IMG/VR virus record: IMGVR_UViG_3300027566_000346
Span: 1-53,223 of that record
Strand: one strand, 5' to 3'
DNA: 53,223 nucleotides
DNA from: a virus
Taxonomy: Duplodnaviria > Caudoviricetes
Part shown: in pieces, positions 1-14,116 of the stretch
How positions within the stretch are numbered: the first letter of the stretch is position 1
Layout: each line of letters opens with the position of its first letter
The notes under the pieces: generated by a model
Database searches by the model: none
Told to the model about the DNA's origin: nothing
What the model saw: the letters and a program-made list of their open reading frames with translations, nothing else
Translations under genes and position numbers: made by a program

Positions 1-777
1 TTAAAAATAACATTTGGGGAAATTAAAACAACCCCAAAATTCGCCATATGGTCCTTTCCGTAAAACCAAAGCGGTTTTACATACAGGGCAACACATGAAC
101 GGGTTAAATTTAACTGGAGATAGCTCCCAGTTTGCAACATCGAACTTAACTGCATGGCCATTTTTACATATTAATGTGCGGCCGCGATAATCAATTGGAA
201 AATCGACAGTTTCTCCGCATTCCAAGCACATAATTTTAAAGAACATATCTTGTTCCGGTTCTAGTTCATTCAGAAGCCAAATAAGAATTGCCCCATCCAC
301 TAATTCAATATTATTTTCAATTGAATATTCATAAGCTGTATGTGAAAAATAATCGTTTGTTACAAAAACGCCTTTATTAATGAGTTTCTCCTTCATGACA
401 GAGGAAAACTTTTGTAATTGAGAACGTCCTAATTTTCTATTAGAGTCCCACTTCTTTACCTCAAAAAGGCGAGAATTAGGTCCGTCAACCAAAATAACGT
501 CGTTATGACTATTCGAAACTAATTCTATGAGCTCAAAATCATGATTTGAATATAGGCTGACAACAACTTTTTTAAAATCATCTGAATTTAATGAGTCAAT
601 TCGGTCAAGTTTAGGAGATAACATATTTGTTATTCTATCTATCTCGTCTCGCTTTAGTTCATTTGCACTTAATCTAATATTCCAGGATTCAATTTTTTTT
701 GCTTTTTCTTTATCATCTATTTTCATTAAGAAAATGATCAGGGAGGCCACAACTATAATAATAACAATCGTCGTCAT
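1..777 (-). CDS. Membrane-anchored Mrr-family restriction endonuclease with C-terminal Zn ribbons (topoisomerase C4-type)
   Basis: N-terminal hydrophobic helix; D...EVK, 'GVFVTNDYFS..A......IELVDG' Mrr_cat pattern; CPVC..LVLRKGPYGEFWGC..FPKC. Confidence 0.8.
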   Translation of the reverse strand: MTTIVIIIVVASLIIFLMKIDDKEKAKKIESWNIRLSANELKRDEIDRITNMLSPKLDRIDSLNSDDFKKVVVSLYSNHDFELIELVSNSHNDVILVDGPNSRLFEVKKWDSNRKLGRSQLQKFSSVMKEKLINKGVFVTNDYFSHTAYEYSIENNIELVDGAILIWLLNELEPEQDMFFKIMCLECGETVDFPIDYRGRTLICKNGHAVKFDVANWELSPVKFNPFMCCPVCKTALVLRKGPYGEFWGCFNFPKCYF

Positions 778-1007
778 TCATCTCACAGCCTCCTTAAGTC
801 TAATAATGTTACCTGGTAACTCCTGTCCGAGTAAGCGTCTTGTACAATTGCCATTTCCTACCCCTCCTCTCGTCCATTCACTCTATTTTACTCTAGAACA
901 GTCTTTGTAAATTTTGCGAATTCACCATTATCCATTTTTCTTGAGTTCGGGCAAAAGTACTCCCTTACAATTTCTACATCCTTCTTCCTTTTCCTGCCAT
1001 ATAATGC

Positions 1008-1379
1008 CTATAATCCACAATTATTATCCTGGTATTGCAGCCATTTGTTTTCGAGAAGACTCTTTTTGGCGGCCGAGGCAATTTCATAAATGATCCGTTT
1101 TTCATAGCTGGTGCAGCCCTCTATAAGCCGTGTCAGATCTGTCCGATATTCTGCCGAATCGTTTGCTTGATTGCCGTTTAAAAAATAATCCACTGTAACG
1201 CCAAGAACATTCGCAATTCGTACCAGTGCTTCCAGACTTGCCTGCTTTTTTGCCGTTTCGATATGGCTTATGTAGGTCACAGACATATCAATCCGTTCTG
1301 CCAATACCGCCTGGGACATTCGATGATGTATACGAGATTCTTTGATCCTTATCCCAATAATTTTAAAATTAACTGACAT
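1008..1379 (-). CDS. XRE-family helix-turn-helix transcriptional regulator
   Basis: IGIRIKESR..MSQAVLAE..MSVTYISHIET.K..ASLEALVRIANVLGVTVDYFL. Confidence 0.92.
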   Translation of the reverse strand: MSVNFKIIGIRIKESRIHHRMSQAVLAERIDMSVTYISHIETAKKQASLEALVRIANVLGVTVDYFLNGNQANDSAEYRTDLTRLIEGCTSYEKRIIYEIASAAKKSLLENKWLQYQDNNCGL

Positions 1380-1512
1380 TCTTTGCCCTCCTACTGTGTA
1401 AAAATCTCCTATATTCTACCCAACAGGCAAGGGCTTCAGGCTTCGGTATAAAAAGCAAAATCCACATCGAATAAAATCCGTTTATGATAATATCTGAATT
1501 AATTTCACCTGG

Positions 1513-1552
1513 AAATGAACCACAGGTAAATTTGTTGACCTGTAGTTCATTT
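1513..1552. promoter_or_regulatory. Imperfect inverted repeat (15-bp arms, 10-bp spacer) between divergent XRE and recombinase genes
   Basis: AAATGAACCACAGGT-N10-ACCTGTAGTTCATTT, 14/15 complementary; candidate operator or recombination site. Confidence 0.5.
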
Positions 1553-1611
1553 TCTTATCCTCCTGCGCCTTATAAAATTGGGGAAATAACTATATCCACG
1601 GAGTGTTTGCA

Positions 1612-3492
1612 ATGAAAGAAGCCGAGAGTCAGAAGGCACGTATTCGCGAACGATATAAAGGTATTGACTTGGATGAACTTGACGTCATCCCAGCTGTTGC
1701 GCAGGAGAATTTCTTCGACAGCATAAATATAAAGCGCGTTGCGGTGTATGCGCGGGTATCTACCGACGATCCACGACAAACATCTTCGTATGAACTTCAA
1801 AAAAACCACTACAAAGATCTTGTCAGCCGTCATCCAAACTGGAATCTGGTGGATATTTATGCCGATGAAGGTATTTCCGGAACGTCACTCCAACATCGCA
1901 ATGCTTTCATTAAGATGATAAAAGATTGTCAGGATGGCAAGATTGACCTTGTAGTGACAAAGACGGTTGCACGTTTTGCGAGAAATATTCTGGACTGCAT
2001 TGGTTATGTACGTCAGTTGGCGGCTATACAACCGCCCGTCGGCGTTTTTTTCGAAACGGAGAATATCTACACCCTTAACAGCAACAGCGAAATGCTCCTA
2101 TCCTTTATGGCTACTATGGCACAAGAGGAATCGCACAACAAAAGTGATATTATGAATTCATCTATCGAAATGCGTTTCCGAAGAGGTATATTCCTGACAC
2201 CTCCGCTGCTAGGTTATGATCTGGACGCAGACAGGAACCTTGTTATCAATGAAAACGAAGCCGAGACAGTACGTTTGATCTTCTTCATGTATCTCTACGG
2301 GTATACCTGTACCCAGATTGCCGATACCTTGACCAACCTTGGACGCCGAACAAAAAAAGACAATGCATCGTGGTCACCGGGTTCTATTCTTCAGATTCTA
2401 CAGAACGAGCGGCACTGCGGGGATGTTCTGGCCCGCAAAACGTGGACACCAAATTACCTTGATCATAAATCTAAGAAAAATAGGCAGAACAAAAATCAAT
2501 ACCGAAAACGGAACCACCATGAAGCAATTATCCCAAGGGACGATTTTATAGCGGTCCAGCGACTCATCAGCAACGCCAGGTATGGCAATAAGGGAATTCT
2601 GCCAGAACTGCAAGTCATTCGTGACGGCGTCCTAAAGGGATTTGTCTCAGTAAATCCACGGTGGATGGCTTTTGGCGCTGATGATTATCGAGCGGCATCC
2701 AGCAGTGTCGATGACAATGGAAACAGACTACAAGCAGAAAGATTTGAGATTGAGGCTCAGTCCGGCGATTTTGATTTGCGCGGTTATGAAATCGCACGTT
2801 CGCAATTCTTTGATACCGCCCGAAAGCTATGTGTCACCTTATCAGCTGATTGCATCGTGTTCAGTACTGAGTGCATCCGGAAATTTGATAAGGCTCTCTA
2901 TATAGAAATGCTGGTTCAGCCAAGCGAGCAGCTTCTTGTGGCACGCCCTTGTACGAAAGAGACAAGGAACGCTGTCCGGTGGGCTAATCTCCATGAAGGC
3001 CAGTATTATTCCCGACCTGTCAACTGCGCCGCATATATCAAAACCCTGTATGGACTTTTCGGCTGGAAATCAGGTTGTAAATATCGCGTGCGCGGTATAT
3101 ACAGGCAAAAAGATAACGAGGCGGTCGTAATATTTGATATGAGGGAAACTGAAATATTCATACCACAGGATACTCTTGGTTTGGCCAGAGAGGAAACAAT
3201 GATGGATGATTTGCTTCCAAATGACGTGCGTCCTTTCACTGCCGGTCCCAAAAAGGATATTATGGCGTATCCCTCGTCATGGGCGAACACTTTTGGCAGT
3301 AACTTTTACCGACATGCGCAAGCACGAGAATTGGCAGCCTTTGTTAATCAGGGCATATGGAATGTAAATGAAGAAGGAGAGCCGTTTTGTGATTCTCAGG
3401 TGTTGAACGTGACAAATCCCGAAGTTGTCGGCAGTAAAATTGAGCAGATGATCAGCAATATGGAACAGGAGACTATTAGAGATGGAGAGTGA
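1612..3492 (+). CDS. Large serine recombinase with an extra C-terminal domain of unknown function
   Basis: AVYARVSTD catalytic Ser, DEGISGT, RFARN, AQEES, LLGYD, HEAII motifs; GGAG RBS favours ATG 1612. Confidence 0.92.
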   Translation: MKEAESQKARIRERYKGIDLDELDVIPAVAQENFFDSINIKRVAVYARVSTDDPRQTSSYELQKNHYKDLVSRHPNWNLVDIYADEGISGTSLQHRNAFIKMIKDCQDGKIDLVVTKTVARFARNILDCIGYVRQLAAIQPPVGVFFETENIYTLNSNSEMLLSFMATMAQEESHNKSDIMNSSIEMRFRRGIFLTPPLLGYDLDADRNLVINENEAETVRLIFFMYLYGYTCTQIADTLTNLGRRTKKDNASWSPGSILQILQNERHCGDVLARKTWTPNYLDHKSKKNRQNKNQYRKRNHHEAIIPRDDFIAVQRLISNARYGNKGILPELQVIRDGVLKGFVSVNPRWMAFGADDYRAASSSVDDNGNRLQAERFEIEAQSGDFDLRGYEIARSQFFDTARKLCVTLSADCIVFSTECIRKFDKALYIEMLVQPSEQLLVARPCTKETRNAVRWANLHEGQYYSRPVNCAAYIKTLYGLFGWKSGCKYRVRGIYRQKDNEAVVIFDMRETEIFIPQDTLGLAREETMMDDLLPNDVRPFTAGPKKDIMAYPSSWANTFGSNFYRHAQARELAAFVNQGIWNVNEEGEPFCDSQVLNVTNPEVVGSKIEQMISNMEQETIRDGE

Positions 3493-4207
3493 ACATGTTT
3501 TGCTCAGTACTATAAGCGATTCGATAGAATTAAAAGAACAGGTAACAGAAGCAGCGGCAGACGAACAAGCTATACAGGACGATTACTTCACTTATGATGG
3601 TTATCAAGTAGTTCGCCGCGAATTTTTCGCTCATATGTATGAGCCCTCTATTACTTTCAATAACTGCAAGCTTTCACTTAATAAAGCGTGCCTGACTCGT
3701 CTGCCAGATGTAGATTATGTTCAGATACTTGTAAACCCGGAACAAAAGAAGCTTGCCGTCCTTCCCAGCAGTGAGGACGAAAAAGACTCATTCCTTTGGT
3801 GCAGCACCCGGGGTGAAAAAAGAAAACCAAGACAGATAATCTGCCGCATGTTCTTTGCCAAGGTTATTCAATTGATGGGTTGGAATCCGGATTATCGTTA
3901 TAAGATGCTTGGGAAGCTGATTCAAAGCGGCAGTGAGCAACTGTTTGTCTTTGACCTTACGGCAACAGAAATCTACCAGCGCTTTCTAAGCGACGGAGAG
4001 AAGATTAAGACCTCACGTACCCCTGTCTTCCCTGCGGAGTGGCAAACTCAGTTTGGTTTGCCGGTTGAAGAACACCGCCGACTGCTTCAAGTAAACATAT
4101 TCGACGGTTATACCGTTTTTGGCATCAAAGATAAACCGGTTGCTAGTCCAGAAAATACATCCGAGGGACAATCTGTTCTGTCAGGAGGGATGATGAAATA
4201 TGACTGA
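3482..4207 (+). CDS. Hypothetical protein paralogous to the recombinase C-terminal domain
   Basis: Overlaps upstream gene; F...GY...R..FF, Y...LV.P, GW..., FD...TEI, P..W...FG..H shared with the upstream protein. Confidence 0.8.
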   Translation: MESEHVLLSTISDSIELKEQVTEAAADEQAIQDDYFTYDGYQVVRREFFAHMYEPSITFNNCKLSLNKACLTRLPDVDYVQILVNPEQKKLAVLPSSEDEKDSFLWCSTRGEKRKPRQIICRMFFAKVIQLMGWNPDYRYKMLGKLIQSGSEQLFVFDLTATEIYQRFLSDGEKIKTSRTPVFPAEWQTQFGLPVEEHRRLLQVNIFDGYTVFGIKDKPVASPENTSEGQSVLSGGMMKYD

Positions 4208-4580
4208 TAATAGCACAGCGAGGCCGGCTATACTGGTAGACCTTAAAAAGTATCGTATCAGGATACACAAAAACACGCTTCGCTCTATTGGTACCCCAAA
4301 TTACGTTCTGCTGTTGGTAAATCCGGAAGAACGCACATTAGCGATCCTTCGCAGCGATCGTTCTGATCCGCGCGCACACCATATAAACATGGCTTTATTT
4401 GAAAATAATAAGGCATCATTCGAATTATACAGCAGGCCCCTTATAAAGAAACTGCGTGATGTATGCAGTAGCTGGCAGGACAGTCAATCATACCGCTTGT
4501 ATGGGGAAATAATCCCCCATGAAGATATGGCTCGGTTTTATATGTCTGAAGCTGTTCCGATGAATGGAGCTGAAACATAA
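4200..4580 (+). CDS. Hypothetical protein, minimal third copy of the same domain
   Basis: GGAGG RBS; NYVLLLVNPEERTLAI resembles DYVQILVNPEQKKLAV. Confidence 0.75.
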   Translation: MTDNSTARPAILVDLKKYRIRIHKNTLRSIGTPNYVLLLVNPEERTLAILRSDRSDPRAHHINMALFENNKASFELYSRPLIKKLRDVCSSWQDSQSYRLYGEIIPHEDMARFYMSEAVPMNGAET

Positions 4581-5538
4581 CGCCATGGCAGAACAATGCA
4601 TTTATAAATTGAAAATCGACGCTGGTTTCAAACGGTTGATTCCGCCCTTGTCTGCTGAAGAACTGAAGCAGCTTGAAGATAATATTATTCACGACGGGTG
4701 CCGTGAGCCAATTTGTGTTTGGAACAATACGATTTTGGATGGCCATAACCGTTATGAAATATGCACACGACAACAAATACCATTTATGATCCAACGCATA
4801 TGTTTTAATAACCGTGAGGAAGCAATAACGTGGATCTGTGCTAATCAGCTTGGCCGCCGCAACATCACAGAAGAAACACGTAAATACCTGATCGGTAAAA
4901 GGTACGAGATGGAGAAAATAATCGGTGCCCATAATGCTGCTGGGATCAACCAGCACACGAAAAAAGAGGTTAGGGCTAAAATGTTGCCCGAACCACCTTT
5001 TGGTATAACAGCCGCTCGAACAAGAGAACGGCTTAGCGAGGAGTACAAAATTTCACATGCCACCGTTCAATCTTATGAAAAGTATTCTCAATCACTAGAC
5101 TCGTTATCGAGAGTTGCACCTGAATTAGTTCCGAAGATATTATCAGGCGAGGTAAAGATATCCATTGAAAATACTGTTGAGTTGTCTCGGTTACCCGGGC
5201 TGGAAATCAAACGTTTGAGCCAGCTTATATCAGACGATACCTCTAAATTTATCGAGAATCTACGCAGGGTTCTTCCCAAAAAACAAAGTTCAACAGAGAA
5301 ACTCTATTTTCCGGTACCCGCTGGCTCCGTTAAAGACATACCTGTTTATGACCCAGATGCAGAAATATCCAGCCTTGCATTAACCATTCCATCCTGGATC
5401 AGTTCAATTAACCGCACCTGCTCCGCTGCTGACCTCAGTAGTACAACCTATAACGCACGCAGCAAGCTCGAGAAGCAACTGTTGGAATTGAAAGTAACCA
5501 TCGACTCTATGCTTGCGGCAATAAGGGAGGAGATCTGA
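4564..5538 (+). CDS. ParB/Srx N-terminal domain protein with probable HTH
   Basis: LIPPLS.EE..QLE.NI..DG.REPI.VW...ILDGHNRY..C; NQLGRRN. Confidence 0.8.
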   Translation: MELKHNAMAEQCIYKLKIDAGFKRLIPPLSAEELKQLEDNIIHDGCREPICVWNNTILDGHNRYEICTRQQIPFMIQRICFNNREEAITWICANQLGRRNITEETRKYLIGKRYEMEKIIGAHNAAGINQHTKKEVRAKMLPEPPFGITAARTRERLSEEYKISHATVQSYEKYSQSLDSLSRVAPELVPKILSGEVKISIENTVELSRLPGLEIKRLSQLISDDTSKFIENLRRVLPKKQSSTEKLYFPVPAGSVKDIPVYDPDAEISSLALTIPSWISSINRTCSAADLSSTTYNARSKLEKQLLELKVTIDSMLAAIREEI

Positions 5539-6407
5539 TGGACGACTACAGTGCTTTTGTCCCTAAAGTACATTTTGAGCAAATTCCTATTAAAAATCTG
5601 GTTTCTAATCAGGAGTATCAAAGGAATCTGTCTATTACGCATGTCAAGCGCACGGTTGATAACTTTGACTTATACCAAATTAATCCGGTAAAGGTCAGCC
5701 GCCGCAATGGCGTCAATTATGTTTTCAACGGCCAGCACACAATTGAAATCATTGCAATAGTATCCGGATCACGTGAAACCCCGATTTGGTGTATGATTTA
5801 TGATGATCTGGAATACACCATGGAGGCAGATATTTTTGCAAACCAACTAAAATATGTTAAACCGCTGCTGCCCTATGAAATTTTTATGGCAAATATTGAA
5901 GCCGGCAACGATGAACAGCTTATTATTAAATCACTGGTTGAATCATACGGCTTGTTTATTTCATCAAATAAAGTGCCCGGCGGTATATGTGCCGTGTCAT
6001 GCCTGGAATATATTTATCAGAAATATGGATTTCATGTGCTTGATCGCACTCTGCGTCTTTGCATTGGAACATGGGAGGGAGATAGCAATTCATTTTCAGC
6101 TAATATGCTGAAAGGAATAGCTCATCTGATTGTTGCCTTTGGCGATGTCCTGAAGGATGATGCTTTCAAGGAAAAAGTCGGTAAGTTTTCATCGCGAGAG
6201 ATTGGGCGTATAGCAAAGGATCGAAAAGCCGGATCTCTTGGTTATACTGAAGCCATGCTTATCGCCTACAATAAGAAAATGAAATCCCCATTAAAATGGG
6301 CCAAATTATATATGACCAAATCTACTGCGCCTGATGATGACTTTTACACAGATTATGAAGAAACCGACTTAGATGCAACAGAAGAAATAGAAGCCGATGG
6401 TATCTGA
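5538..6407 (+). CDS. ParB-superfamily DGQHR/DndB-like protein (DUF6551-like)
   Basis: YQR motif and FNGQHT variant of DGQHR; TGATG coupling; acidic tail. Confidence 0.7.
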   Translation: MDDYSAFVPKVHFEQIPIKNLVSNQEYQRNLSITHVKRTVDNFDLYQINPVKVSRRNGVNYVFNGQHTIEIIAIVSGSRETPIWCMIYDDLEYTMEADIFANQLKYVKPLLPYEIFMANIEAGNDEQLIIKSLVESYGLFISSNKVPGGICAVSCLEYIYQKYGFHVLDRTLRLCIGTWEGDSNSFSANMLKGIAHLIVAFGDVLKDDAFKEKVGKFSSREIGRIAKDRKAGSLGYTEAMLIAYNKKMKSPLKWAKLYMTKSTAPDDDFYTDYEETDLDATEEIEADGI

Positions 6408-6490
6408 ATCACAACTATGGATATGATCTACCTTCTCTTACTAATCTGATTGCATCAGACTAAAATTCTTCAGTGTATCGCTTCCCATTT

Positions 6491-7876
6491 TTATTCATCT
6501 TTGAATCCCTCCACAGTTGTTATTTGACCTACATCTGTGTGTTCGACAAATTGAGTATAAGTCAACCTTTTGGTTACAATAGCTTTGACCTCATTAAGTA
6601 TATCTGTAACCGGATCACAGTTTTTAGCCTTTCGATGAACTAAATCGATGTAAGACAATAGCAGCTCCTTATTTGTTTCATTGTCCGTTGCTAAGGCGTA
6701 TACTTCTAACTCCTCTGCATATTTGCGGAGCCTTTGTGACATAAACCAGCTTTCCATTTGTTGTTCAATATTCTCCATTAAATGATTCCTGCGGCGTTTC
6801 TGTTCTTCTGTCTGTTGAACTCGTTTTCTTTTTTCTTCTTCAATGGCCTGAAGCCGTTTCCTCTCGATCTCCATTAGTTCTCTCTCACGTTCATGTTTAA
6901 GATCAGCCATAAAAGATTCGTTGGCCATTTTGCATAAAGCTATGAAGATATCTCCTATTTGCTTCTCAATGGGATTATCATCTGAATCCACAAATTTGAC
7001 TCCTTTTGGAGTTTTGACTTTTTGCCAGGGATCCAGAACTTCCTCAAATTCTATTTCGAATCTCCCGCTAAATACTTTTTCATACATTGGTTTAAAATCG
7101 GTTGGATAATTGTCCGGTTGACTTGATAATAAGGTGCGCCTTTTTACCATGATTTCAAACAGCTGAAATGAAAAATTATATCCAAACAACTTAAAACTGG
7201 CATTATCCTTTACTCCCGAACCAACAGTCACATTCCCGCCTAATTCCTCAACTGATTTAATTAATGCTTCAACTAATCTATATGCACGATTAGCCTGTTT
7301 GTTCGATACGTATATCGGCAGGACTGCTTTATTATCCCGATATTTTATTTTTGTATTATCCAACGTATAATTCAAAGAGAAACTAAATTTGTCATGGAAT
7401 CTATGGACTTCATCACGCTTTTTTCTATATTCCATTTCCTCCTGGTAATTAATAATTAGTTGATTATACTGAGCTACCCGTTTCGGAACTTCAATTTTCT
7501 TACACCAACTTAAAAATCTTTCCTTTGACTCAGGAGAAAGTAAGCCCAGTCCTTCTAGTTCTTGTAGTTGCTCGGAAGTATTTTCGGTAATATCGATTAG
7601 CTCCAGCTTCAGGCCTGGTTTTTTATCAGTATCAATGGAGACACCAGCTTGTTTGTGAATAAATAAGGCTTTATAAGGAGGAAGTTCAGGCTGGGCTGGA
7701 ACTGATTTTCCGGCTTGTAATTTTGCCCAGTATCCGGCGGGGGGAAGTGGTATCTCAAGTTTCACGCACCTTTTGCGAAGGCCATTATCAGATATTTCGT
7801 AGCGCTTGGCTACAGTTGTCATTGGTTCTTTCCAGACTTCGTCAAACAGTTTTTGCCTTTCCTCTTCAAAATTCAT
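6491..7876 (-). CDS. Hypothetical protein with N-terminal HTH-like motif and C-terminal coiled coil
   Basis: 461-aa ORF; LFDEVWKEPMTTVAKRYEISDNGLRKRC...P.PPAGYWAK. Confidence 0.7.
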   Translation of the reverse strand: MNFEEERQKLFDEVWKEPMTTVAKRYEISDNGLRKRCVKLEIPLPPAGYWAKLQAGKSVPAQPELPPYKALFIHKQAGVSIDTDKKPGLKLELIDITENTSEQLQELEGLGLLSPESKERFLSWCKKIEVPKRVAQYNQLIINYQEEMEYRKKRDEVHRFHDKFSFSLNYTLDNTKIKYRDNKAVLPIYVSNKQANRAYRLVEALIKSVEELGGNVTVGSGVKDNASFKLFGYNFSFQLFEIMVKRRTLLSSQPDNYPTDFKPMYEKVFSGRFEIEFEEVLDPWQKVKTPKGVKFVDSDDNPIEKQIGDIFIALCKMANESFMADLKHERERELMEIERKRLQAIEEEKRKRVQQTEEQKRRRNHLMENIEQQMESWFMSQRLRKYAEELEVYALATDNETNKELLLSYIDLVHRKAKNCDPVTDILNEVKAIVTKRLTYTQFVEHTDVGQITTVEGFKDE

Positions 7877-9513
7877 TATGCCCCCTCCTGACTGCGGAAT
7901 GAAAATCCGCTTCTCAGAAGATCATCGACTAGTTCTTCGAGTTCGTACTCGTTATTAACCTGTTCAGGCACAAAATAACGGCATTGATTATCATTGAATA
8001 GAGCAGAAATACAACTTAGAAAATCAGGTATTTCGTGATAATCAAATTTATGAAGTACTTTATCATCATGGGCGATTCTTATATTTCGGGAGAAGATCTT
8101 GGATAGATGCACACCCACTATTGCATTGCGCATTTCACTCAAACGATTAAAATCTTCTTCAAACTCACTTCGATAGTTTTTCCTTTTTATTAGCAATGAA
8201 AGATCGACTGCAAATTTTATTTTAAACTTCATTTCCTTTGCAATATTTCTGATCCTTATAATATCCTCAGCGGTTTGCATAAGATATGGTAACTTTGAGC
8301 TCTGCTTAAAAGGTCCGTTCACCAGGGCTATCTTCATGCTTGTATATTTTTTCAAGCTTTTTTCCAATATGCGATATTGGGCAAAAAATTCTTCTTCGTT
8401 ATATATCTGTGATCTCAGCGGAGATAATAGTTCCAGAGCATAGGGTACGCCATGATCGGCAAAGGTCTTCTTAAGATTACTGATAACTAAGTCCAACTCA
8501 TTTGCATTTTTCCACATGGCGTCATTATCTTTGTTGTAACTCAGCCTTAATATATATGGACCATCCGGTTTGGATTTTATAGAGCCATTGGTCGTTTCAA
8601 GGAACTTAATTGTGCTTGGGATGTCTGCAGGATAGGGAATATCTTTAATCTTTACCGGGAGAATAATATTGATATTATCAACTATGCTTACCCTCCCGGT
8701 TGTCACACATAAATTAACGTATTCAGGCCAATAGTCAGTGTCTTTAACATTCTCGAAAAGCCATACATACATGATAAGCATTTCGAGTTCACCTTTGCGG
8801 CCATTAATAAACGGTCGATGGATATTATCTTCATATATTTCATTTATCCCGAACGGGTTATTATTATATCTGTGGTTGTAGCGGTTAATACGGTAAGAAC
8901 TGTCATAATCCCTGTCAAAAACGTGTTCAATATATTCATCATAAAAGGAATACGTTAGATTCTGGGCATACTCAAACAAATTTACACCATAACCACGATA
9001 CGTTTCCTTGACCCAATCAACTAATGAATTATCCAGCAGCTTGAAACCTGAAATAGAAGGTTTTCCCACCCGTCTCTCCTTTGATTCCCTGGCTAGGATT
9101 ATTAGCTCATCTTTGTATTGCTCAACTTCTGTATTTTTCATTTTTGTACTTGCACAGAATTGATTAACGGTTTTTTCGTAATCATCCTGACAATAAAATA
9201 AATCCAAATATTCTTCCCCTTTAAGCCAGTTATTTATTATCCTGTCTATCCGGGTCTTGTATTTTTTATAGTACTCAATGATAAAGGCTTTACTTTCAGG
9301 ATAATCATCCGCTATCTCCTGTTCGATCTTTACAGCTGTCTGCTCTAATTTTATATTTTCGTAGTCGTAGGCTTCTGGATTTAGATAATTATTGAAGTAC
9401 TCCATGACATATCTAATAACCGTTGCCATATTCTCGGCATGATTTTTGAAGTTGAACTCGTCCAACTTGTCCTTCTTTTTCATCTGGGAAATGTACTGTT
9501 CAATGGTAAGCAT
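7876..9513 (-). CDS. Hypothetical protein: helical N-terminal domain plus degenerate AP-endonuclease/xylose-isomerase-like TIM barrel
   Basis: 545-aa ORF with RBS; KFAVDL, IVGVHLS, FVPE strands suggest the barrel (fold is inference). Confidence 0.55.
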   Translation of the reverse strand: MLTIEQYISQMKKKDKLDEFNFKNHAENMATVIRYVMEYFNNYLNPEAYDYENIKLEQTAVKIEQEIADDYPESKAFIIEYYKKYKTRIDRIINNWLKGEEYLDLFYCQDDYEKTVNQFCASTKMKNTEVEQYKDELIILARESKERRVGKPSISGFKLLDNSLVDWVKETYRGYGVNLFEYAQNLTYSFYDEYIEHVFDRDYDSSYRINRYNHRYNNNPFGINEIYEDNIHRPFINGRKGELEMLIMYVWLFENVKDTDYWPEYVNLCVTTGRVSIVDNINIILPVKIKDIPYPADIPSTIKFLETTNGSIKSKPDGPYILRLSYNKDNDAMWKNANELDLVISNLKKTFADHGVPYALELLSPLRSQIYNEEEFFAQYRILEKSLKKYTSMKIALVNGPFKQSSKLPYLMQTAEDIIRIRNIAKEMKFKIKFAVDLSLLIKRKNYRSEFEEDFNRLSEMRNAIVGVHLSKIFSRNIRIAHDDKVLHKFDYHEIPDFLSCISALFNDNQCRYFVPEQVNNEYELEELVDDLLRSGFSFRSQEGA

Positions 9514-9572
9514 TGTTCACTCCCCCTACATTCCAACCATCCACTTCATTCAATATAAATGCCAAAGGGTTA

Positions 9573-10265
9573 TTATTTACTTTCTGAACACTTATTAATA
9601 ACAGAGAGCGTTCTGTCTTGAAGACGCTCCAATAATTCCTTCTTCTTTTCATTAGTAGCGAGCCATAAATCTCCGTACTGATTTGCGAAAGCCTTAAATA
9701 ATATTTTCTCGTCTTCTGTTCCTTCTATTTCCAGTATCTCAGACATCAGTTTCTTATCCTTTATAACATTCAAAAAGCCATAAAATATGTTACCTAATCT
9801 TTCACCTGCATATTTATTAACATTTTCTTGTGTGTATGGCAAACTCGGCACTATACAACTAACTTTCATTCTTTGTTTATTCTTACCTCTACCTGTTAAA
9901 AAACTGGGTTCGGAATCATCCTCGGAAATATCAATCTTTATAATATTCTCTGCATCCAAACAATCCCCTTGAATGGTCGTGGAATACACTTCAATCCCAT
10001 TTTTGTTAAGAACCTCTTCTAGTTCTTTCAACTGAAAACTCAATACATCGGAGATTTTATCCTCTTTCGTTCCCTTATTGGTTTTGCGTGGAACTACAAC
10101 AAATTCCTCGAACCTGTGGTCGTACAACAAATTTACATGAAAGCTTACTATCATTTTATAGGCCGTGCCATTAACGAAACTATCTTTACTCCTTTTTATT
10201 ACCTTGTTAAGCTTTGAGCCAAGTTTCTCATCAAAAATATCCGTTTTCCGCAAAACTAATTCCAT
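9573..10265 (-). CDS. Hypothetical protein
   Basis: ORF; GGAGG RBS places start at 10265 (MELVLRK). Confidence 0.7.
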   Translation of the reverse strand: MELVLRKTDIFDEKLGSKLNKVIKRSKDSFVNGTAYKMIVSFHVNLLYDHRFEEFVVVPRKTNKGTKEDKISDVLSFQLKELEEVLNKNGIEVYSTTIQGDCLDAENIIKIDISEDDSEPSFLTGRGKNKQRMKVSCIVPSLPYTQENVNKYAGERLGNIFYGFLNVIKDKKLMSEILEIEGTEDEKILFKAFANQYGDLWLATNEKKKELLERLQDRTLSVINKCSESK

Positions 10266-10350
10266 TAGACAACAACCTCCTAACCGGTAGTAAATCATTA
10301 ACAATTTCTTACATTTTAACATATACTGCCATTTTATGTGCCCCTGTTCA

Positions 10351-10403
10351 AATAAAAAAAGCCGATCAAGATCGTAATTAAAACAACCCCAACCGACAAT
10401 TTT
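10351..10403 (-). terminator. G-U-rich intrinsic terminator (copy A)
   Basis: 15-bp stem fully paired only in - strand RNA, followed by U7. Confidence 0.7.
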
Positions 10404-10427
10404 GTCTTCTTCAATTTTACAGTCAAT

Positions 10428-10735
10428 CTAGATCGCCGTATAACCAAATTCCTTTAGTCTTTTCCTACACATTTCGCGTTCTTGATCTATAAATAATTCG
10501 CTATACTCCGGCTTAAGAACAAACGCTTCTACCGAAAGATCTAACTTTTATGGTCCCAAAGTACTTCAAATCCATCAGTACCGCCATCCTTTGATATAAG
10601 TATTTTTGCAGCTTGCAAACCGCCTTTTTCTGAAACAAGTTGCAAGAAGCGTGTGGCTTTATAGCCTAGTTCCTTCTTAGCAATGATATAAATATTCTGC
10701 ATATCACCATTAAATTTGCTCTCCAATGCCTCCAT
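10428..10735 (-). pseudogene. Frameshifted ~102-aa conserved hypothetical protein
   Basis: ORF stops at WDHKS*, but the -1 frame continues LDLSVEAFVLKPEYSELFIDQEREMCRKRLKEFGYTAI*. Confidence 0.75.
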
Positions 10736-10750
10736 GATTAGCACCTCCAA

Positions 10751-11353
10751 TTATTTCAAAACATCCCAATTGTTCAAATGGTCAGTAACATTAATAGTAT
10801 TTTCGCGAACCTCGGTTGCTTTACCATCCTTTACAACAAAGTAAAGATGAAGAATTTTATTATTTGTAGACGAACGATTTTCATCCGAATACGCACCTAA
10901 TTCACCAGGCTCATATAAAAAGAAATTCCAATTTCCATTTTTGTCAGCAACCGAGAACAGGCAATAGGCAAAAATGGTCCCTATTATCTCATCCAAATTC
11001 ACGGTATGCCATCCATGTTCAAGCCCTCCGGTTTTATGGTCATAAGTTTTGCTATGAAAGAACTTGATAATAATCGCATTTTTTGAACCCAGGTCAGGCT
11101 TGATTACCTTAATGCCACTTCCTTCTCGGCGAGAAGCTATATCAACCAGATAATCAGGGAATTTACTTCGGATTATTTTCATTGCTTTGTCTCTCGCCTG
11201 TGAGCGGGTAAAGTCTCCTTGCTCATTCTCAATGCTATCATCTTCAAATTCTTCACTACGAGACGCTAGTTCAGTCTTAACTTCAACCATCTGTTCCTCT
11301 AGAGTTTGAACCCGACTCATCAATTCCAATATAATTCTATCAAAATTCATCAC
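10751..11353 (-). CDS. Hypothetical protein with N-terminal coiled coil
   Basis: 200-aa ORF with AAGGAG RBS and its own promoter. Confidence 0.75.
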   Translation of the reverse strand: MMNFDRIILELMSRVQTLEEQMVEVKTELASRSEEFEDDSIENEQGDFTRSQARDKAMKIIRSKFPDYLVDIASRREGSGIKVIKPDLGSKNAIIIKFFHSKTYDHKTGGLEHGWHTVNLDEIIGTIFAYCLFSVADKNGNWNFFLYEPGELGAYSDENRSSTNNKILHLYFVVKDGKATEVRENTINVTDHLNNWDVLK

Positions 11354-11380
11354 ACCATCTCCTTCGCTGATATTAAATTT

Positions 11381-11409
11381 ATCATAGTTGATAAATTGCG
11401 ATATGTCAA
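11381..11409 (-). promoter_or_regulatory. Sigma-A promoter of the two-gene cassette
   Basis: TTGACA-N17-TATGAT. Confidence 0.75.
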
Positions 11410-11461
11410 TGATATAATCTCGACAATATTATTCTATCATTACGAAGTATTAATGGTGCGG

Positions 11462-11511
11462 AATAAAATAAGCCGGTCAAGATCGCATTTAAGCAATCCC
11501 AACCGGCTTTT
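11462..11511 (-). terminator. G-U-rich intrinsic terminator after the recombinases (copy B)
   Basis: GCCGGUUGGGAUUGC-loop-GCGAUCUUGACCGGC plus U-rich tail. Confidence 0.75.
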
Positions 11512-11517
11512 ACTCCC

Positions 11518-12933
11518 CTATTCAATTACACAATCAATATCTGACCCATCAAGCAAACTAACAACCAGTACTCCAGAATCATAAACCACTATCTTTTCTA
11601 CCAGTTTAAAGTACAAGTCCACTTCAAACTGGTCAATTGGTTCGGCCTTGGAAAAGATCTTTATGAACCTTTTAGCGGTAACTCTCTTGAGAATATCATC
11701 CTCACTCTCCATCACCTGCTGCCACTTTTCCATGAAATATTCCTTGTTCTCAACCACCGCATTAGATGCATTTATAAAAGCCTGATATAATACATATTCA
11801 TCAATATGCCTGCTCTCACAGCCTTTTTCACCTTTAACCTCGTACTTGCCATTACACCGCCACACTATCCTGCGTAACCTCTCATCCGTAGAATTCCATA
11901 CCTTCCTGCCAAAGGCTTTGCCGCATTTGCCGCAGATTACCTTTCCTGAAAAGGGACTGTTAACCGTTGCATAATCAATCAAACCTATTCCATGCTTTTC
12001 AGCAAAAACTTTTCTTCTCTCCATTTCAAGTTGCACTGCTTCCCATGTATCCTTATCAATTATTGCTGGATGGCTATCTTCAACATAATACTGTGGAACT
12101 TGGCCGTCATTCTTAACTCGCTTCTTGTTTAAGAAATCTACTGTATAGGTTTTTTGAAGCAGGGCATCACCTTTATACTTTTCGTTACTAAGCATTTTTC
12201 TAATGGTGCCGTGGTACCATTTCCCTTTTCCATTCCAGTGCATAACTCCTTCCGTCTCAAGATCTTTAGCTATGCGGTTGGCCCCTTTTCCCTCCAGGAA
12301 CTCAGTATATATCCGTCTGACTATTTTGGCCTGCTCCTCATTAATAATGAGGTTCCCGCTATCGTCTTTATCGTAACCAAGAAATTTAATATGGTTTACT
12401 ATAATTTTTCCCTGTTCAAAGCGTCGGCGGATTCCCCAAGTACAATTTTCTGAGATGGAGCGGCTTTCATCCTGAGCAAGTGAGCTTAAGATCGATAGCA
12501 GAACTTCTCCCTTGCCATCCAGAGTATTAATATTTTCTTTCTCGAATATGATCCCAATACCTAAGCCCTTGAGCAGTCTGACGTAATTAAGGCAATCTAA
12601 TGTGTTTCTAGCAAACCTGGATATGGATTTGGTTATTATCATATCTATCTTTCCTGCCTTGCAGTCCTCAATCATTTTGTTAAACTGCTCTCGCTTTTTA
12701 GTATTGGTTCCAGTGATGCCCTCATCTGCATAGATACCCGCCAGGTCATAGTCGAGATGCCCAGTTATGTATGTGGTGTAGTAAGTAACCTGGGCCTCAT
12801 AACTTGTCTGCTGCTCCGCCTGGTCGGTCGATACTCTGCAGTACGCCGCCATTTTCTTTTTCTTTGGTTCCAATTCTTCTGCCAGGTTAGATCTGTTCGT
12901 TCTTGCTGGAATAACTGTAATGTTTCTTGCCAT
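11518..12933 (-). CDS. Large serine recombinase/integrase
   Basis: AAYCRVSTD, SISRFARN, FLGYD, Zn ribbon CGKCG. Confidence 0.95.
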   Translation of the reverse strand: MARNITVIPARTNRSNLAEELEPKKKKMAAYCRVSTDQAEQQTSYEAQVTYYTTYITGHLDYDLAGIYADEGITGTNTKKREQFNKMIEDCKAGKIDMIITKSISRFARNTLDCLNYVRLLKGLGIGIIFEKENINTLDGKGEVLLSILSSLAQDESRSISENCTWGIRRRFEQGKIIVNHIKFLGYDKDDSGNLIINEEQAKIVRRIYTEFLEGKGANRIAKDLETEGVMHWNGKGKWYHGTIRKMLSNEKYKGDALLQKTYTVDFLNKKRVKNDGQVPQYYVEDSHPAIIDKDTWEAVQLEMERRKVFAEKHGIGLIDYATVNSPFSGKVICGKCGKAFGRKVWNSTDERLRRIVWRCNGKYEVKGEKGCESRHIDEYVLYQAFINASNAVVENKEYFMEKWQQVMESEDDILKRVTAKRFIKIFSKAEPIDQFEVDLYFKLVEKIVVYDSGVLVVSLLDGSDIDCVIE

Positions 12934-14083
12934 CCTTTTTGACCACCTTTATTATGGTTTCGCCCTGAATATTGACCTTAGCGAGTTCCTTCTCATCAAT
13001 ATTAGTGCCTGTGCAGGTGAGCTTACCTTTTTTCACATGATTACTGCACTGCCAAACATACTTTTTGCAGGGTTTGTTCACATTCCATACCTTTCTCAGG
13101 AGTACTGCTCCGCATTTGCTGCAATATAGTAAGCCTTTATAGGGATATTTATAATTGTACTTCGGGTCATTAGTTTTACTTTTGTGTTTGTACTTGCGTT
13201 CAGCAATGATCTGCTGGGCCTTGTCCCAGACTTCCCGAGATATTATTGCAGGATGGTTATCCTTGATATAGTACTGATTTAATTCTCCACGGTTAGGTAC
13301 GGATTTTTTACTTAAGTGGTTTGCAATATAAGTTTTTTGGCACAACACATCGCCCTGGTACTTTTCATTTTTCAAAATCTTGATTATTGAAGAGTTGTCC
13401 CACTTGTCTCTGCCGCTAAGGGTTTTTATCCCTTCCTCGGCAAAAATTCTGGTGATAGCAGTGCAGCCTGTTCCGCTTACATATAAATCAAAAATCCGCC
13501 TAACTAATTCTGCTTCTTTTTCATTGATCACTAAATTTCCATTCTTGTCTTTATCGTATCCGAGGAACCGGTTGGTATGAATGTGTATTTTGCCTTTTTG
13601 ATAATCCCTTCTTATACTCCATTTAATATTCTCACTCGCACTCCGGCTTTCTTCCTGGGCAAATGAAGAAAGGACGGTAAGCATTAACTCACCGTCCCCT
13701 GACAAGGTATTTATATTCTCTTTTTCAAACCTAACCTCAACGCCAATATCCTTAAGCTCTCTTACCACCTCAAGCATCACCGTGGTATTTCTTGCAAATC
13801 TGGAGATGGACTTGGTTATTATTAGATCTATCCTGCCTTGTCTACAAAGCTCAAGCATTCGTTGAAACTCTGGTCTGTTGTCCGTAGTGCCGGTTATACC
13901 CCGGTCAGCAAAGACTTCTACATATTCGTAGTCGGGGTTACTGGTAATGAGTTTTTCGTAGTAGGTCGTTTGGTTTTCTAGCGACTCCCCTTGTAGATGA
14001 TGGTCAGTTGAAACCCTGGCATAAGCACAGGTTCTTAGTTTCCTAAGGTTTTTCTGGGTAGGCCTAATAATCCTTACATGCAC
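12887..14083 (-). CDS. Large serine recombinase/integrase
   Basis: CAYARVSTD, SISRFARN, FLGYD, CSKCG. Confidence 0.95.
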   Translation of the reverse strand: MHVRIIRPTQKNLRKLRTCAYARVSTDHHLQGESLENQTTYYEKLITSNPDYEYVEVFADRGITGTTDNRPEFQRMLELCRQGRIDLIITKSISRFARNTTVMLEVVRELKDIGVEVRFEKENINTLSGDGELMLTVLSSFAQEESRSASENIKWSIRRDYQKGKIHIHTNRFLGYDKDKNGNLVINEKEAELVRRIFDLYVSGTGCTAITRIFAEEGIKTLSGRDKWDNSSIIKILKNEKYQGDVLCQKTYIANHLSKKSVPNRGELNQYYIKDNHPAIISREVWDKAQQIIAERKYKHKSKTNDPKYNYKYPYKGLLYCSKCGAVLLRKVWNVNKPCKKYVWQCSNHVKKGKLTCTGTNIDEKELAKVNIQGETIIKVVKKDGKKHYSYSSKNEQI

Positions 14084-14116
14084 GGCTTTTCCTCCCTTCT
14101 ATCAAATTGGCACTAC

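Follow-up and report, generated by a model that had tools for sequence, protein, structure and literature searches.

What task falls to a serine recombinase that is encoded together with two further copies of its own C-terminal domain and two ParB-like proteins? The question is raised by positions 1008–6407 of a tailed-phage sequence (Caudoviricetes; IMG/VR record IMGVR_UViG_3300027566_000346), whose whole analysed stretch of 53,223 nucleotides is called the window here. Our reading, to which we assign a probability of roughly 0.4 as a whole, is that this segment may be a self-contained, horizontally exchanged site-specific recombination cassette with an accessory enzyme.

A six-gene block and its boundaries

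The left end of the block is an XRE-family helix-turn-helix regulator gene on the minus strand (1008–1379; Pfam HTH_3, 1.7e-14). It is followed on the plus strand by five genes that overlap successively by 11, 8, 17 and 1 nt: the serine recombinase (1603–3492; 629 aa from the GTG at 1603, or 626 aa from the ATG at 1612 in the version of a public protein collection), a 241-aa protein (P241; 3482–4207), a 126-aa protein (P126; 4200–4580), a 324-aa protein (ParB324; 4564–5538) and, at the right end, a 289-aa DUF6551 protein (5538–6407). An earlier note on this DNA had given the same genes and coordinates, an XRE gene and five tightly coupled ones, and these were confirmed. Its description of the operon as divergent from the regulator holds in the window but not across loci, where XRE orientation varies by lineage: a window-type XRE gene lies on the minus strand in 34 loci and on the plus strand in 29 and was undetected in 20, with too little upstream sequence in 6 further loci.

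DNA similarity to the 12 best-matching loci starts at 1009–1078 and ends at 6312–6412. Among the closest relatives it begins at or just inside the XRE stop codon, and in four of the nearest its right-hand end falls at 6407–6412. Nothing was found to be conserved outside either outer stop codon in the compared loci, nor did we find terminal direct or inverted repeats. Judged from these alignments, the six genes are a sharply bounded cassette in which DNA similarity stops at both outer stop codons. In sequencing runs from landfill and peat, positions 1001–6500 and 11501–14500 are covered and depth is much lower between 6500 and 11501 and to the left of 1001; the read-level data gave no evidence of a recombination product and no read joint that removes the cassette.

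As the earlier note had supposed in treating them as a block, the operon genes are co-conserved. Gene order is kept, as far as the contig extends, in 28/28 loci chosen via P241, and 83 of 106 related loci have all five genes. The four junctions, in operon order, overlap or are at most 10 nt apart in 63/87, 88/91, 89/95 and 95/104 cases. A distant variant with a recombinase only 32% identical retains the two paralogues (p280 scores 99.2% to both P241 and the tail, and p192 97.4% to P126), and neither ParB324 nor the DUF6551 protein was detected in it; conversely, in three loci (L045, L071 and L078) the ParB pair remains although the recombinase and P241 are absent. By this comparison, the recombinase with its long and short paralogues is the deeply conserved core, and the ParB pair stands outside the deepest part of it. 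The cassette is widespread in phages of the gut and of anaerobes. No description of the block was found in the literature, in agreement with its earlier designation as a candidate for an undescribed system.

The recombinase tail and its free-standing paralogues

The enzyme has the features of its class: a Resolvase catalytic domain that retains the serine nucleophile and the conserved arginines (PF00239, 8e-25, aa 46–195) and a Recombinase domain (PF07508, 9.1e-24, aa 217–323), after which Pfam matches nothing. R51, S53, R124 and R127 are invariant in 49/49 recombinase sequences, and among solved structures the SPbeta integrase is one of the closest in sequence (9dxh, 1.2e-11 over aa 35–324). 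Both domains are shared with large serine integrases such as those of phiC31, Bxb1 and SPbeta (SprA/SprB). In contrast to those systems, the cassette enzyme has neither zinc ribbon nor coiled coil: PF13408 gave no match in it at E ≤ 0.1 and none in the 120 recombinase homologues listed, and a long coiled coil is absent from the mostly-beta model of the homologous P241, our stand-in for the recombinase tail. Both neighbouring recombinases carry the PF13408 zinc ribbon. The same tail occurs on 776 recombinase clusters. From its sequence, then, the enzyme is intact and represents a separate subclass of serine recombinases: in place of the classical zinc-ribbon/coiled-coil module it has a new beta-rich domain whose N-terminal arm is highly conserved.

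That the tail, P241 and P126 can be aligned had been proposed by eye, and profile comparison shows them to be homologous. With hhalign, the tail scored 100% against P241 (E 2.6e-39, 198 columns) and 98.5% against P126 (2.5e-15), and P241 scored 98.0% against P126 (2e-13), compared with 0.1–0.3% for three unrelated control pairs. BLASTP gave E-values of 3e-17, 7e-4 and 4e-6 for the same pairs, and each of the three copies was also found independently when the window was searched in six frames. The region shared by the recombinase is real but spans aa 380–597 (2740–3393, plus strand, by hhalign to the P241 family), about 218 rather than about 240 residues. Whereas P241 has the arm and the full core, P126 is a core-only copy that matches P241 residues 56–163 and lacks the N-terminal F..GY...R..FF arm.

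The P241 family comprises 3470 clusters at E ≤ 0.001, or 1460 representatives at 50% identity; no Pfam domain was found among the 120 clusters listed, and some members are called "integrase" by NCBI. An AlphaFold2 model of P241 (pLDDT 85.3) is mostly beta and yielded 0 matches at E ≤ 0.001 in a Foldseek search of the PDB. The best structural match of the triplicated domain was MraZ (1n0e; Z 3.6, rmsd 3.9, 97 residues aligned) and B3 domains reached Z 2.1–2.8, against a typical chance best Z of 7–8, so that the modelled fold appears to lack a clear solved relative. Median pI is 5.3 for the recombinase tail, 5.6 for P241, 9.1 for P126 and 8.1 for ParB324. It is scarcely credible that the two free-standing copies are functionless, decaying remnants of recombinase gene duplications. 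P126 is indeed the shorter and is missing from 4 of 106 loci, which have no room for the gene (L050, L095, L102 and L110); yet both copies are intact and syntenic in most loci and persist at 32% recombinase identity, the junction overlaps are conserved, and P241 has its large family.

The arm (aa 388–408; 2764–2826, plus strand) is the predicted P241 interface. Its mean top-residue frequency is 0.82, against 0.55 in the rest of the domain and 0.80 in the catalytic domain, and the predicted interface takes in recombinase residues 388–390, 392 and 394–408. Complex prediction docked the recombinase arm on P241 with an ipSAE of 0.70, versus 0.00 for the best of three controls; at least 79% of contacts agreed between runs and partner pLDDT was at least 66. 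In calibration, the mark was reached by 58 of 80 solved complexes and by 2 of 110 mismatched pairs. The model thus favours and supports binding of P241 by the recombinase tail, as had been suggested. The predicted complex joins paralogues, and an arm that packs in cis on its own core could be modelled in trans. As in large serine integrases with their directionality factors (RDFs), a small partner is predicted to bind the C-terminal module; here, however, the partners are paralogues of the new beta-rich module and not unrelated proteins. According to PMC11795197, RDFs have no structural theme in common.

Two ParB-like proteins and an upstream palindrome

ParB324 had been described as a ParB-N protein with a DGHNR motif. 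The fold stands: its AlphaFold2 model (pLDDT 86.2) is predicted to begin with a ParB fold, to continue into a helical middle region of DNA-binding type and to close with a helical hairpin, and all 7 Foldseek matches in the PDB at E ≤ 0.001 are ParB-family chains, with ParB, Noc and KorB among the structures matched. The best is the pNOB8 ParB-N chain 5k5d_B (3.6e-7, 249 columns, TM 0.39/0.48). The nearest named clusters in the Atlas are ParB/Srx (0.97) and a PF02195 cluster (0.96). In sequence the relationship is faint: unlike in known ParB-CTPase systems, ParB324 is below the Pfam threshold for ParB_N (PF02195) in 49/49 family members, 0/49 matching at E ≤ 0.05, and a PF02195 search of the window at E ≤ 10 returned 39641–39895 alone. 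With hhalign, the weak score against a certified ParB_N domain is 5.0%, DGHNR, a candidate for the phosphate-binding box II-type motif (GxxR), aligning with GGHQR. The motif fares less well than the fold: its residues D, G, H, N and R are kept in 37, 38, 36, 29 and 36 of 49 orthologues, and by this count roughly one orthologue in four has lost the nucleotide motif.

The 289-aa protein is the most conserved of the five operon products (62–88% identity; 60 invariant columns in 49 sequences). Its YQR and NGQHT motifs, noted earlier, are kept in 48–49 of 49 sequences, but the label "DGQHR/DndB-like" did not hold: the protein belongs to Pfam DUF6551 (PF20188, 4.8e-29; 102 bits against a cut-off of 26.8, aa 25–246), and TIGR04172 (DndB/DGQHR) gave 16.8 bits against a cut-off of 450, over aa 52–122 only. 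It matches phrog_1033, "ParB-like partition protein" (3.2e-12), and by tblastn is 23–30% identical to actinophage and staphylococcal phage genes annotated as ParB-like. Against a certified ParB_N domain it reached only a weak 2.4% in hhalign, with NGQHT on GGHQR; it has no PDB match by sequence or profile, and profile similarity between the ParB324 and DUF6551 families is 0.1%. Other phage ParB-CTPase-fold proteins with DUF6551 bind CTP or ATP, according to the accessible part of one report (10.1101/2025.10.10.680097). The cassette also departs from ParB-CTPase systems in that both ParB-like proteins are translationally coupled to a recombinase and that neither a ParA partner nor a parS site was identified here.

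Between the regulator and the recombinase lies a 40-bp near-perfect palindrome (1513–1552), 51–90 nt upstream of the recombinase start, with 18-nt arms that are 89% complementary and a 4-nt spacer. It is a single copy in the window and a candidate operator or recombinase site. Of 89 loci, 48 have a palindrome that exceeds the shuffled 95th percentile, and every one of these begins within the bins from -110 to -81; none was found in the other 41. The sequence is lineage-specific and the symmetry is kept. It may be merely the operator of the XRE regulator. The resolvases of Tn3/gamma-delta and RK2 repress and recombine at a site in their own promoter, and RK2 parCBA is a multimer-resolution operon with the serine resolvase ParA and the nuclease ParB. 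The cassette resembles Tn3/gamma-delta res and RK2 parCBA in combining a recombinase operon and a ParB-superfamily protein with a single dyad-symmetric site upstream and, in the window, a divergent regulator. It differs from them in its large-type enzyme, which has a Recombinase domain and no C-terminal HTH, in its domain paralogues, in that no three-subsite res was identified, and in its hosts, which are integrated prophages and islands instead of plasmids.

Place in the host element and competing explanations

The cassette lies at the edge of prophages, two of which split comEC, and of a 22-kb island. The comEC junction is 2–3 kb away in G002 and G003, comEC is 280 nt away in G001, and the island boundary of G006 is within about 460 nt. 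Outside the cassette, the window encodes a tandem overlapping pair of zinc-ribbon serine recombinases on the minus strand (471 and 398 aa; 11518–14083; both PF13408), probably the prophage integrase. At E ≤ 1e-60, 144 phage records contain the pair, and the 40 listed come without exception from Streptococcus phages, phi-m46.1 among them, at ~54% identity; members of this Phi1207.3/phi-m46.1 family have three serine recombinases and target comEC or rum. The available description of Phi1207.3 includes such a tandem pair, integration into comEC and a third recombinase across the attachment site. In contrast to the streptococcal prophages, the triplicated domain appears in 18 and 21 phage records with no Streptococcus among them, and the available accounts of Phi1207.3 and phi-m46.1 do not report a ParB324/DUF6551 pair. 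Streptococcal ICEs likewise have several serine recombinases and a disrupted target gene; as far as the consulted part of their description goes, their triplets are three adjacent, co-oriented paralogous integrases, most with a zinc ribbon (Ambroset et al. 2016, PMC4701971). An ICE-type triplet was rejected for the window, where the third recombinase differs from the pair in both strand and tail, is separated from it by four genes and 5 kb of cargo, and is accompanied by four accessory genes.

Every delimited element has another recombinase, either the tandem zinc-ribbon pair or tyrosine recombinases, and the cassette recombinase is therefore probably accessory and not the primary integrase. 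A less favoured possibility, which we nevertheless take seriously, is that it is a true integrase/excisionase, alone or with the tandem pair in the manner of three-recombinase systems, with P241 and P126 as directionality factors and the attachment site beside the cassette. Its Resolvase and Recombinase architecture is typical of integrases, the cassette lies 0.1–3 kb from the host junction in the four elements named above, and the attachment point is found on either side of the cassette among phages that share a circular gene order; the third recombinase of Phi1207.3, too, is placed at the comEC-proximal end in the available account. G007 showed no large serine recombinase besides this one, and the enzyme could therefore be an integrase there; tyrosine recombinases are encoded elsewhere in that genome. 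However, an attachment half-site would be expected just past the outer stop codons, where nothing is conserved. Serine integrases carry out attP × attB integration, which a directionality factor reverses; no junction attributable to the cassette enzyme was seen. The sole conserved non-coding site lies between the XRE and recombinase genes, and no integrated copy is split there. Moreover, relatives of the tandem pair integrate phages without the cassette, and the enzyme lacks the zinc ribbon and coiled coil that serve attachment-site discrimination.

It is unlikely that the cassette moves on its own, as a small integrative element that travels within phages and islands, inserts next to their attachment sites and relies on the ParB-like proteins to maintain itself. 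DNA identity is 72–88% within the cassette while the flanks are unrelated and the adjacent tandem recombinase has 42–52% protein identity; the cassette is found in Helius-type prophages of two layouts, in the 22-kb island and beside an IS and polA, and only a minority of tandem-pair phages have it. The same boundaries are nonetheless expected from ordinary mosaic exchange of phage modules, and neither terminal repeats or conserved end sequences nor reads with the cassette removed were seen. Less likely still is a role in conflict (defence, superinfection exclusion or anti-defence) for an operon expressed in the lysogen from the variable prophage end, with the recombinase fold turned to a task other than moving the element. 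The neighbourhood would suit it, with an Mrr-like nuclease at 1–777, low-GC cargo of unknown kind at 6491–11353 and an operon strand opposite to that of the lytic genes in the window, and with two C5 methylases plus AAA_5 in L055 and HsdM in L076. Against it, 0/5 operon proteins matched PADLOC models at E ≤ 0.01 and the catalytic recombinase residues are invariant; we know of no defence system of such composition.

The reading of an exchanged recombination cassette with an accessory enzyme can be set out as a mechanism. The carriers would be temperate phages and genomic islands from Clostridia and related anaerobes, with the cassette at their edge. Its three domain copies would form hetero-oligomers, the arm of one copy docking on the core of a partner, and these would set the assembly state of the recombinase, a role played in classical integrases by the coiled coil and the directionality factor. 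DNA contacts that the acidic recombinase tail lacks may come from the short basic paralogue and the ParB/HTH protein, with the invariant DUF6551 protein, presumably of ParB fold, as a putative nucleotide-dependent partner. The earlier note's picture of a shared-domain hetero-oligomer with ParB-like partners, suggested there to control targeting, directionality or maintenance, finds partial support in the homology, the modelled docking of the tail on P241 and the ParB fold, but has to accommodate a ParB pair that is outside the deepest core. As its DNA site, the recombinase would most likely use the palindrome of its own promoter region, whose position is conserved. This site, akin to those of the Tn3 and RK2 resolvases, suggests that the function could be to resolve or maintain an excised or replicating circular element, or to control excision.

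A bolder and doubtful claim is that the locus embodies a new form of control over serine recombination. Arms and cores would be exchanged between the copy fused to the recombinase and the two free ones, and ParB-fold proteins switched by nucleotides would mark the DNA. If true, this exchange, in a fold not seen before, would stand in for the gate that coiled coil and RDF form in classical integrases. The cassette would then be a portable unit with which the phages and islands found in gut anaerobes alter or control whether they are attached, perhaps by leaving comEC reversibly, as in "active lysogeny".

Cassette layout and a recombinase lacking the zinc ribbon

The window is an IMG/VR provirus record that, from ~11.5 kb to beyond 53 kb, consists mostly of a tailed temperate phage on the minus strand encoding a terminase, portal, major head protein, tape measure, amidase endolysin, DNA polymerase, primase-helicase, exonuclease and annealing protein. 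At the left end of this phage lies the cassette, in which an XRE regulator (1008-1379, minus strand) is followed by five plus-strand genes: a 629-aa serine recombinase (1603-3492), the 241-aa P241 (3482-4207), the 126-aa P126 (4200-4580), the 324-aa ParB324 (4564-5538) and a 289-aa protein (5538-6407) assigned to DUF6551 with 102 bits. Successive operon genes overlap by 11, 8, 17 and 1 nt, and across related loci, with start codons assigned by a script, the same junctions overlap or are at most 10 nt apart in 63/87, 88/91, 89/95 and 95/104 cases. The recombinase coordinates are those of the longest ORF, from GTG at 1603; the public protein collection holds a 626-aa form starting at ATG 1612.

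Pfam identifies a Resolvase domain (aa 46-195) and a Recombinase domain (aa 217-323) in the enzyme and nothing C-terminal of them. The zinc ribbon has been lost; the window also encodes two overlapping tandem serine recombinases (the tandem pair; 11518-14083, minus strand), both with a zinc-ribbon domain. Residues R51, S53, R124 and R127 are invariant in 49/49 orthologues, so the catalytic site is intact. A search with the tail alone (the C-terminal domain, aa 380-597) returned 776 clusters at E<=0.001 among 1675 candidates; the 120 matches listed are annotated in Pfam with Resolvase and/or Recombinase and no other domain, apart from one that has none. The domain content, the invariant residues and the number of clusters together define a sizeable, intact, zinc-ribbon-less subclass of large serine recombinases. 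One orthologue, in a Blautia metagenome-assembled genome (L064:3552-4906), is interrupted by an insertion of ~1.35 kb between match residues ~269 and 265, which could be an intron or an insertion sequence.

The domain that the earlier note had aligned by eye in the recombinase tail, P241 and P126 proved to be genuinely triplicated. Pairwise BLASTP among the three copies gave E-values of 3e-17, 7e-4 and 4e-6, and P241, used as query against all six frames of the window, recovered both other copies. Profile-profile comparison of family alignments drawn from 106 related loci matched the tail to P241 at 100% (E 2.6e-39, 198 columns; recombinase 380-597 against P241 27-224), the tail to P126 at 98.5% (E 2.5e-15) and P241 to P126 at 98.0% (E 2e-13; P241 56-163 against P126 12-119), while three control pairs scored 0.1-0.3%. 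From the alignment range, P126 comprises the core only, without the N-terminal “arm” (F..GY...R..FF) common to the other two. The P241 family numbers 3470 clusters at E<=0.001 and has 1460 representatives at the 50% identity level; among 120 matches listed none has a Pfam domain and a few bear the NCBI name “integrase”. Two distant P241 relatives in viral contigs, P0218 and P0203, yielded no loci.

An AlphaFold2 model of P241, built from a 68-sequence alignment, is mostly beta, with a mean pLDDT of 85.3 and a core above 90. Foldseek returned no PDB match for it at E<=0.001, and the best score in an exhaustive VIA-align search was Z 3.6 (MraZ, 1n0e), with plant B3 domains at Z 2.1-2.8, well below the Z of 7-8 that, by the tool's own account, chance commonly reaches. 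Against BFVD the model had two matches at E<=0.001, Gp105 of Lactococcus phage KSY1 and one unnamed protein, followed at weaker E-values by small uncharacterised phage proteins. Judging from the model, the shared domain has no clear solved relative; we do not claim the newness of the fold as proven. The median pI is acidic for the recombinase tail (5.3) and P241 (5.6) and basic for P126 (9.1), values more expected of a module for protein interaction than of one that binds DNA.

The earlier note had proposed that the shared domain builds a hetero-oligomer on the recombinase. Consistent with this, complex prediction for the tail (371-629) and P241 (25-230) gave ipSAE values of 0.68, 0.71 and 0.70 in three runs, against 0.00 for the best of three controls, with contacts agreeing by at least 79% and partner pLDDT of at least 66. 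In the calibration of the tool the mark was reached by 58/80 solved complexes and 2/110 mismatched pairs, counts that are only rough with user-made alignments. The predicted interface is asymmetric, recombinase 388-408 (the arm), 499-501 and 545-568 packing on P241 81-127 and 147-154. No part of the tail is better conserved than the arm (mean top-residue frequency 0.82, versus 0.55 in the rest of the domain and 0.80 in the catalytic domain). We therefore predict from the model that the arm binds the core of its partner; since tail and P241 are paralogues, arm packing in cis could have been modelled in trans. The model favours the proposed association of the two proteins, and the step from association to gated assembly would be a further inference.

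ParB-like proteins of the operon

Structure comparison also bore out the assignment of ParB324 to the ParB superfamily. By sequence, ParB324 has no Pfam match, and 0/49 family members reach ParB_N at E<=0.05. Its AlphaFold2 model (pLDDT 86.2) has a ParB fold: all seven Foldseek matches at E<=0.001 are ParB-family chains, led by pNOB8 ParB-N (3.6e-7), then Noc and the Myxococcus ParB with CDP, with Spo0J and KorB just below and 208-263 columns aligned. A protein atlas agrees with this assignment. The DGHNR motif of ParB324 is kept in just 29-38 of the 49 orthologues.

Conservation within the operon peaks at the DUF6551 protein, in which 60 alignment columns, YQR and GQHT among them, are invariant; close relatives of its gene were found in 254 species genomes. 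In a preprint, phage proteins combining a ParB-CTPase fold with DUF6551 are reported to bind CTP in one instance and ATP in another (bioRxiv 10.1101/2025.10.10.680097). We rejected ParB324 and the DUF6551 protein as mutual paralogues (hhalign 0.1%). The internal reference for ParB comparisons was the only Pfam-certified ParB domain in the window, which belongs to a ParB_N–DNA methyltransferase fusion (38681-39907, minus strand; phrog_498, 5.5e-186; PF02195, 36.7 bits, 39641-39895). Against it ParB324 (5.0%) and the DUF6551 protein (2.4%) scored weakly, with their motifs aligned in register. Searches with single sequences or profiles found no solved-structure relatives of either protein. The early region of the phage carries two amidoligase-like genes (35680-36420 and 37695-38597, minus strand; phrog_2443, 4.9e-47 and 9.1e-92).

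Conservation and boundaries of the cassette

The five genes are co-conserved. In 28/28 loci chosen via P241 (two deposited phages and 26 IMG/VR contigs), gene order was unchanged and no gene that the contig could hold was missing. By script, the complete operon was recognised in 83/106 loci, comprising those 26 contigs and 80 cellular genomes chosen via DUF6551. Nine of the 23 exceptions were inspected: six actually have all five genes, missed because of a masked stretch, a probable frameshift, the 1.35-kb insertion in L064 or the script's own thresholds, and in L045, L071 and L078 the recombinase and P241 are absent despite ~7 kb of upstream DNA. L050, L095, L102 and L110 have no room for P126. 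Contig truncation is suggested for nine of the 10 remaining exceptions, in which the block begins no more than ~1 kb into the locus. In a distant variant, MT838295, the recombinase is 32% identical and carries the fused domain; a 280-aa protein matches both P241 and the tail at 99.2%, a 192-aa protein matches P126 at 97.4% (E 1.4e-11), and an 87-aa protein and a metallophosphoesterase follow. Neither ParB324 nor the DUF6551 protein was detected in this variant, so the recombinase, P241 and P126 form the ancient core, to which the ParB pair is a lineage-specific addition. The Subdoligranulum plasmid OY725878 was discarded as an independent example, being the same element (99-100% identity).

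The ends of the cassette are sharp. When window 1-12000 was compared with all loci by blastn, similarity to the 12 best-matching loci (72-88% identity) began at 1009-1078 and ended at 6312-6412, four of them reaching 6407-6412; these limits correspond to the stop codons of the two outermost genes, XRE and DUF6551. In one locus, L046, the XRE segment is reversed. Beyond these limits the DNA is unrelated, and the tandem recombinase next to the cassette reaches only 42-52% protein identity. In contigs from landfill and peat metagenomes coverage is concentrated on 1001-6500 and 11501-14500; depth is much lower between these segments and to the left. No terminal repeats were found at the cassette ends, and no sequence is conserved beyond either outer stop codon. 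To the left, the gene at 1-777 (minus strand) combines an Mrr-type restriction endonuclease domain (PF04471, 1.8e-15) with a C4 zinc ribbon of the topoisomerase type and is matched in PADLOC to type IV REase and ZorD-like entries; the record begins exactly at the stop codon of this gene, so the provirus boundary is a gene edge, not an attachment site. To the right, four minus-strand genes of low GC (35-39%) occupy 6491-11353 (461, 545, 249 and 200 aa), between the cassette and the tandem pair. None has a Pfam match, the 461-aa and 545-aa proteins have no PHROG or PADLOC match and the 249-aa protein no PHROG match, and the segment has no similarity in the closest relatives; these genes are variable cargo of a junction prone to recombination.

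The only conserved non-coding element of the cassette is a 40-bp palindrome (1513-1552). A palindrome exceeding the shuffled 95th percentile occurs in 48/89 loci, in all of which it starts in the bins spanning -110 to -81 from the recombinase start; its sequence varies by lineage while its symmetry is kept, and its position is unchanged whichever direction the XRE gene points. The window holds no second copy within three mismatches, and among the loci an extra half-site occurs only in L040.

Within -1500 to 0 of the recombinase start in loci L009-L111, the window-type XRE gene occupies the same position in both orientations (34 minus, 29 plus). Some loci add a second XRE gene, unrelated to the first and belonging to one of two types, and the far regulator of L086 and L104 is unrelated to the near regulator of L015, L022 and L059. 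Plus-strand type-A copies are 58-62% alike, versus 40-58% when compared with minus-strand copies, and no inverted repeats were found flanking the gene. An invertible-regulator switch was rejected on these three grounds, and we read the two orientations, from sequence comparison, as an old fixed rearrangement rather than a live switch. In the one sample with the full window, probably its source, no contig joint bears on excision, inversion or cassette loss, and no RNA data containing the window are listed. The probable source run, X1, also holds a variant contig of the XRE-recombinase intergenic region (1230-1559, 34 differences, depth 4) and, at 10370-11518, a 7-kb contig in which the tandem recombinase runs on, past its 3' end, into different DNA; related phages therefore coexist in the sample.

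Genomic settings and possible roles

The block is present in deposited Ca. Heliusvirales phages, a widespread intestinal lineage (PMC11283538); in the paper describing them, “recombinase”, “integrase” and “ParB” have 0 occurrences and only a “DNA invertase” is mentioned. In [Ruminococcus] torques (G002:C39:391290-449147) and Jutongia (G003:C3:159274-221648), comEC is split at residue ~250-263 by a 56-60-kb Helius-type prophage; the cassette, 2-3 kb in from the junction, is followed directly by the convergent tandem pair and then by the terminase. Anaerocolumna (G001) and Kineothrix (G004) share this circular gene order with the genome opened elsewhere. In Anaerocolumna the 3' end of the cassette is 280 nt from an intact comEC, with the terminase ~34 kb and the tandem pair ~57 kb off at the far end; in Kineothrix the terminase comes first, ~20 kb from the cassette, and a tandem pair follows at ~38-40 kb. 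The two layouts place the attachment point on either side of the cassette.

This edge position raises the alternative that the cassette encodes a true integrase with paralogous directionality factors. The cassette does occur apart from the tandem pair: in Bilifractor (G006), where synteny with a relative delimits a ~22 kb insertion, it sits at the edge, within ~460 nt of a Tad ATPase gene, on a contig with no tandem pair and no Helius-type terminase, and in G007 it lies beside an IS and polA in a genome where no other large serine recombinase was found. Near its other end the Bilifractor island carries three tandem tyrosine recombinases (G006:C12:426963-430707), with an HsdM type I methylase between. 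At E<=1e-60, relatives of the tandem pair turn up in 144 phage records, 81 of them Streptococcus by organism name, and every one of the 40 listed, phi-m46.1 among them, is a Streptococcus phage (~54% identity); the triplicated domain occurs in just 18-21 phage records, none streptococcal, and one plasmid record. comEC is also the target gene of streptococcal Phi1207.3, which integrates at a GA dinucleotide within comEC and has three serine recombinases, an overlapping tandem pair at one end being proposed for integration/excision (PMC4260502). The comEC prophages resemble it in both target and overlapping pair. On this distribution and the Phi1207.3 precedent, the comEC prophages are more likely integrated by the tandem pair, with the cassette enzyme in an accessory role, an assignment that falls short of proof.

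Of the remaining explanations, an autonomous hitch-hiking cassette is favoured by the sharp ends amid unrelated flanks and disfavoured by the lack of terminal repeats; a conflict system is favoured by the neighbouring restriction gene and disfavoured by the invariant active-site residues and by a PADLOC search that matched no operon protein. Against P241 and P126 being functionless remnants stand their conserved gene order and their persistence in the distant variant. Our preferred reading, at a probability of roughly 0.4, is an accessory recombination cassette in which the enzyme hetero-oligomerises with its two domain paralogues and is thereby controlled. The arm-core contact would gate recombinase assembly, replacing the coiled coil and directionality factor; P126 and ParB324 might supply DNA contacts, and the DUF6551 protein could act as a nucleotide switch, in line with the nucleotide-gated partners first proposed. 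Were the palindrome the site of the enzyme, it would imply a resolvase-like role on the circular form, for which we take Tn3 res and RK2 parCBA to be the fitting comparisons.

Large serine recombinases are a model for directional DNA rearrangement and serve as genome-engineering tools, and their directionality is thought to rest on the zinc-ribbon/coiled-coil module. The subclass of 776 clusters dispenses with that module and travels with two paralogues of the replacement domain. Literature drawn mostly from non-subscription journals yielded no description of the enzyme subclass, the paralogues or the operon, in keeping with the suggestion that the system is undescribed, and we rate the cassette as a serine-recombinase system with a new regulatory architecture. 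The splitting of comEC by Helius-type prophages makes it conceivable that reversible excision controls competence. Once worked out, the function of the cassette would test the gating of recombinase assembly by domain paralogues, would assign roles to two large “hypothetical” families and to DUF6551, and might explain the keeping or release of abundant Heliusvirales prophages.
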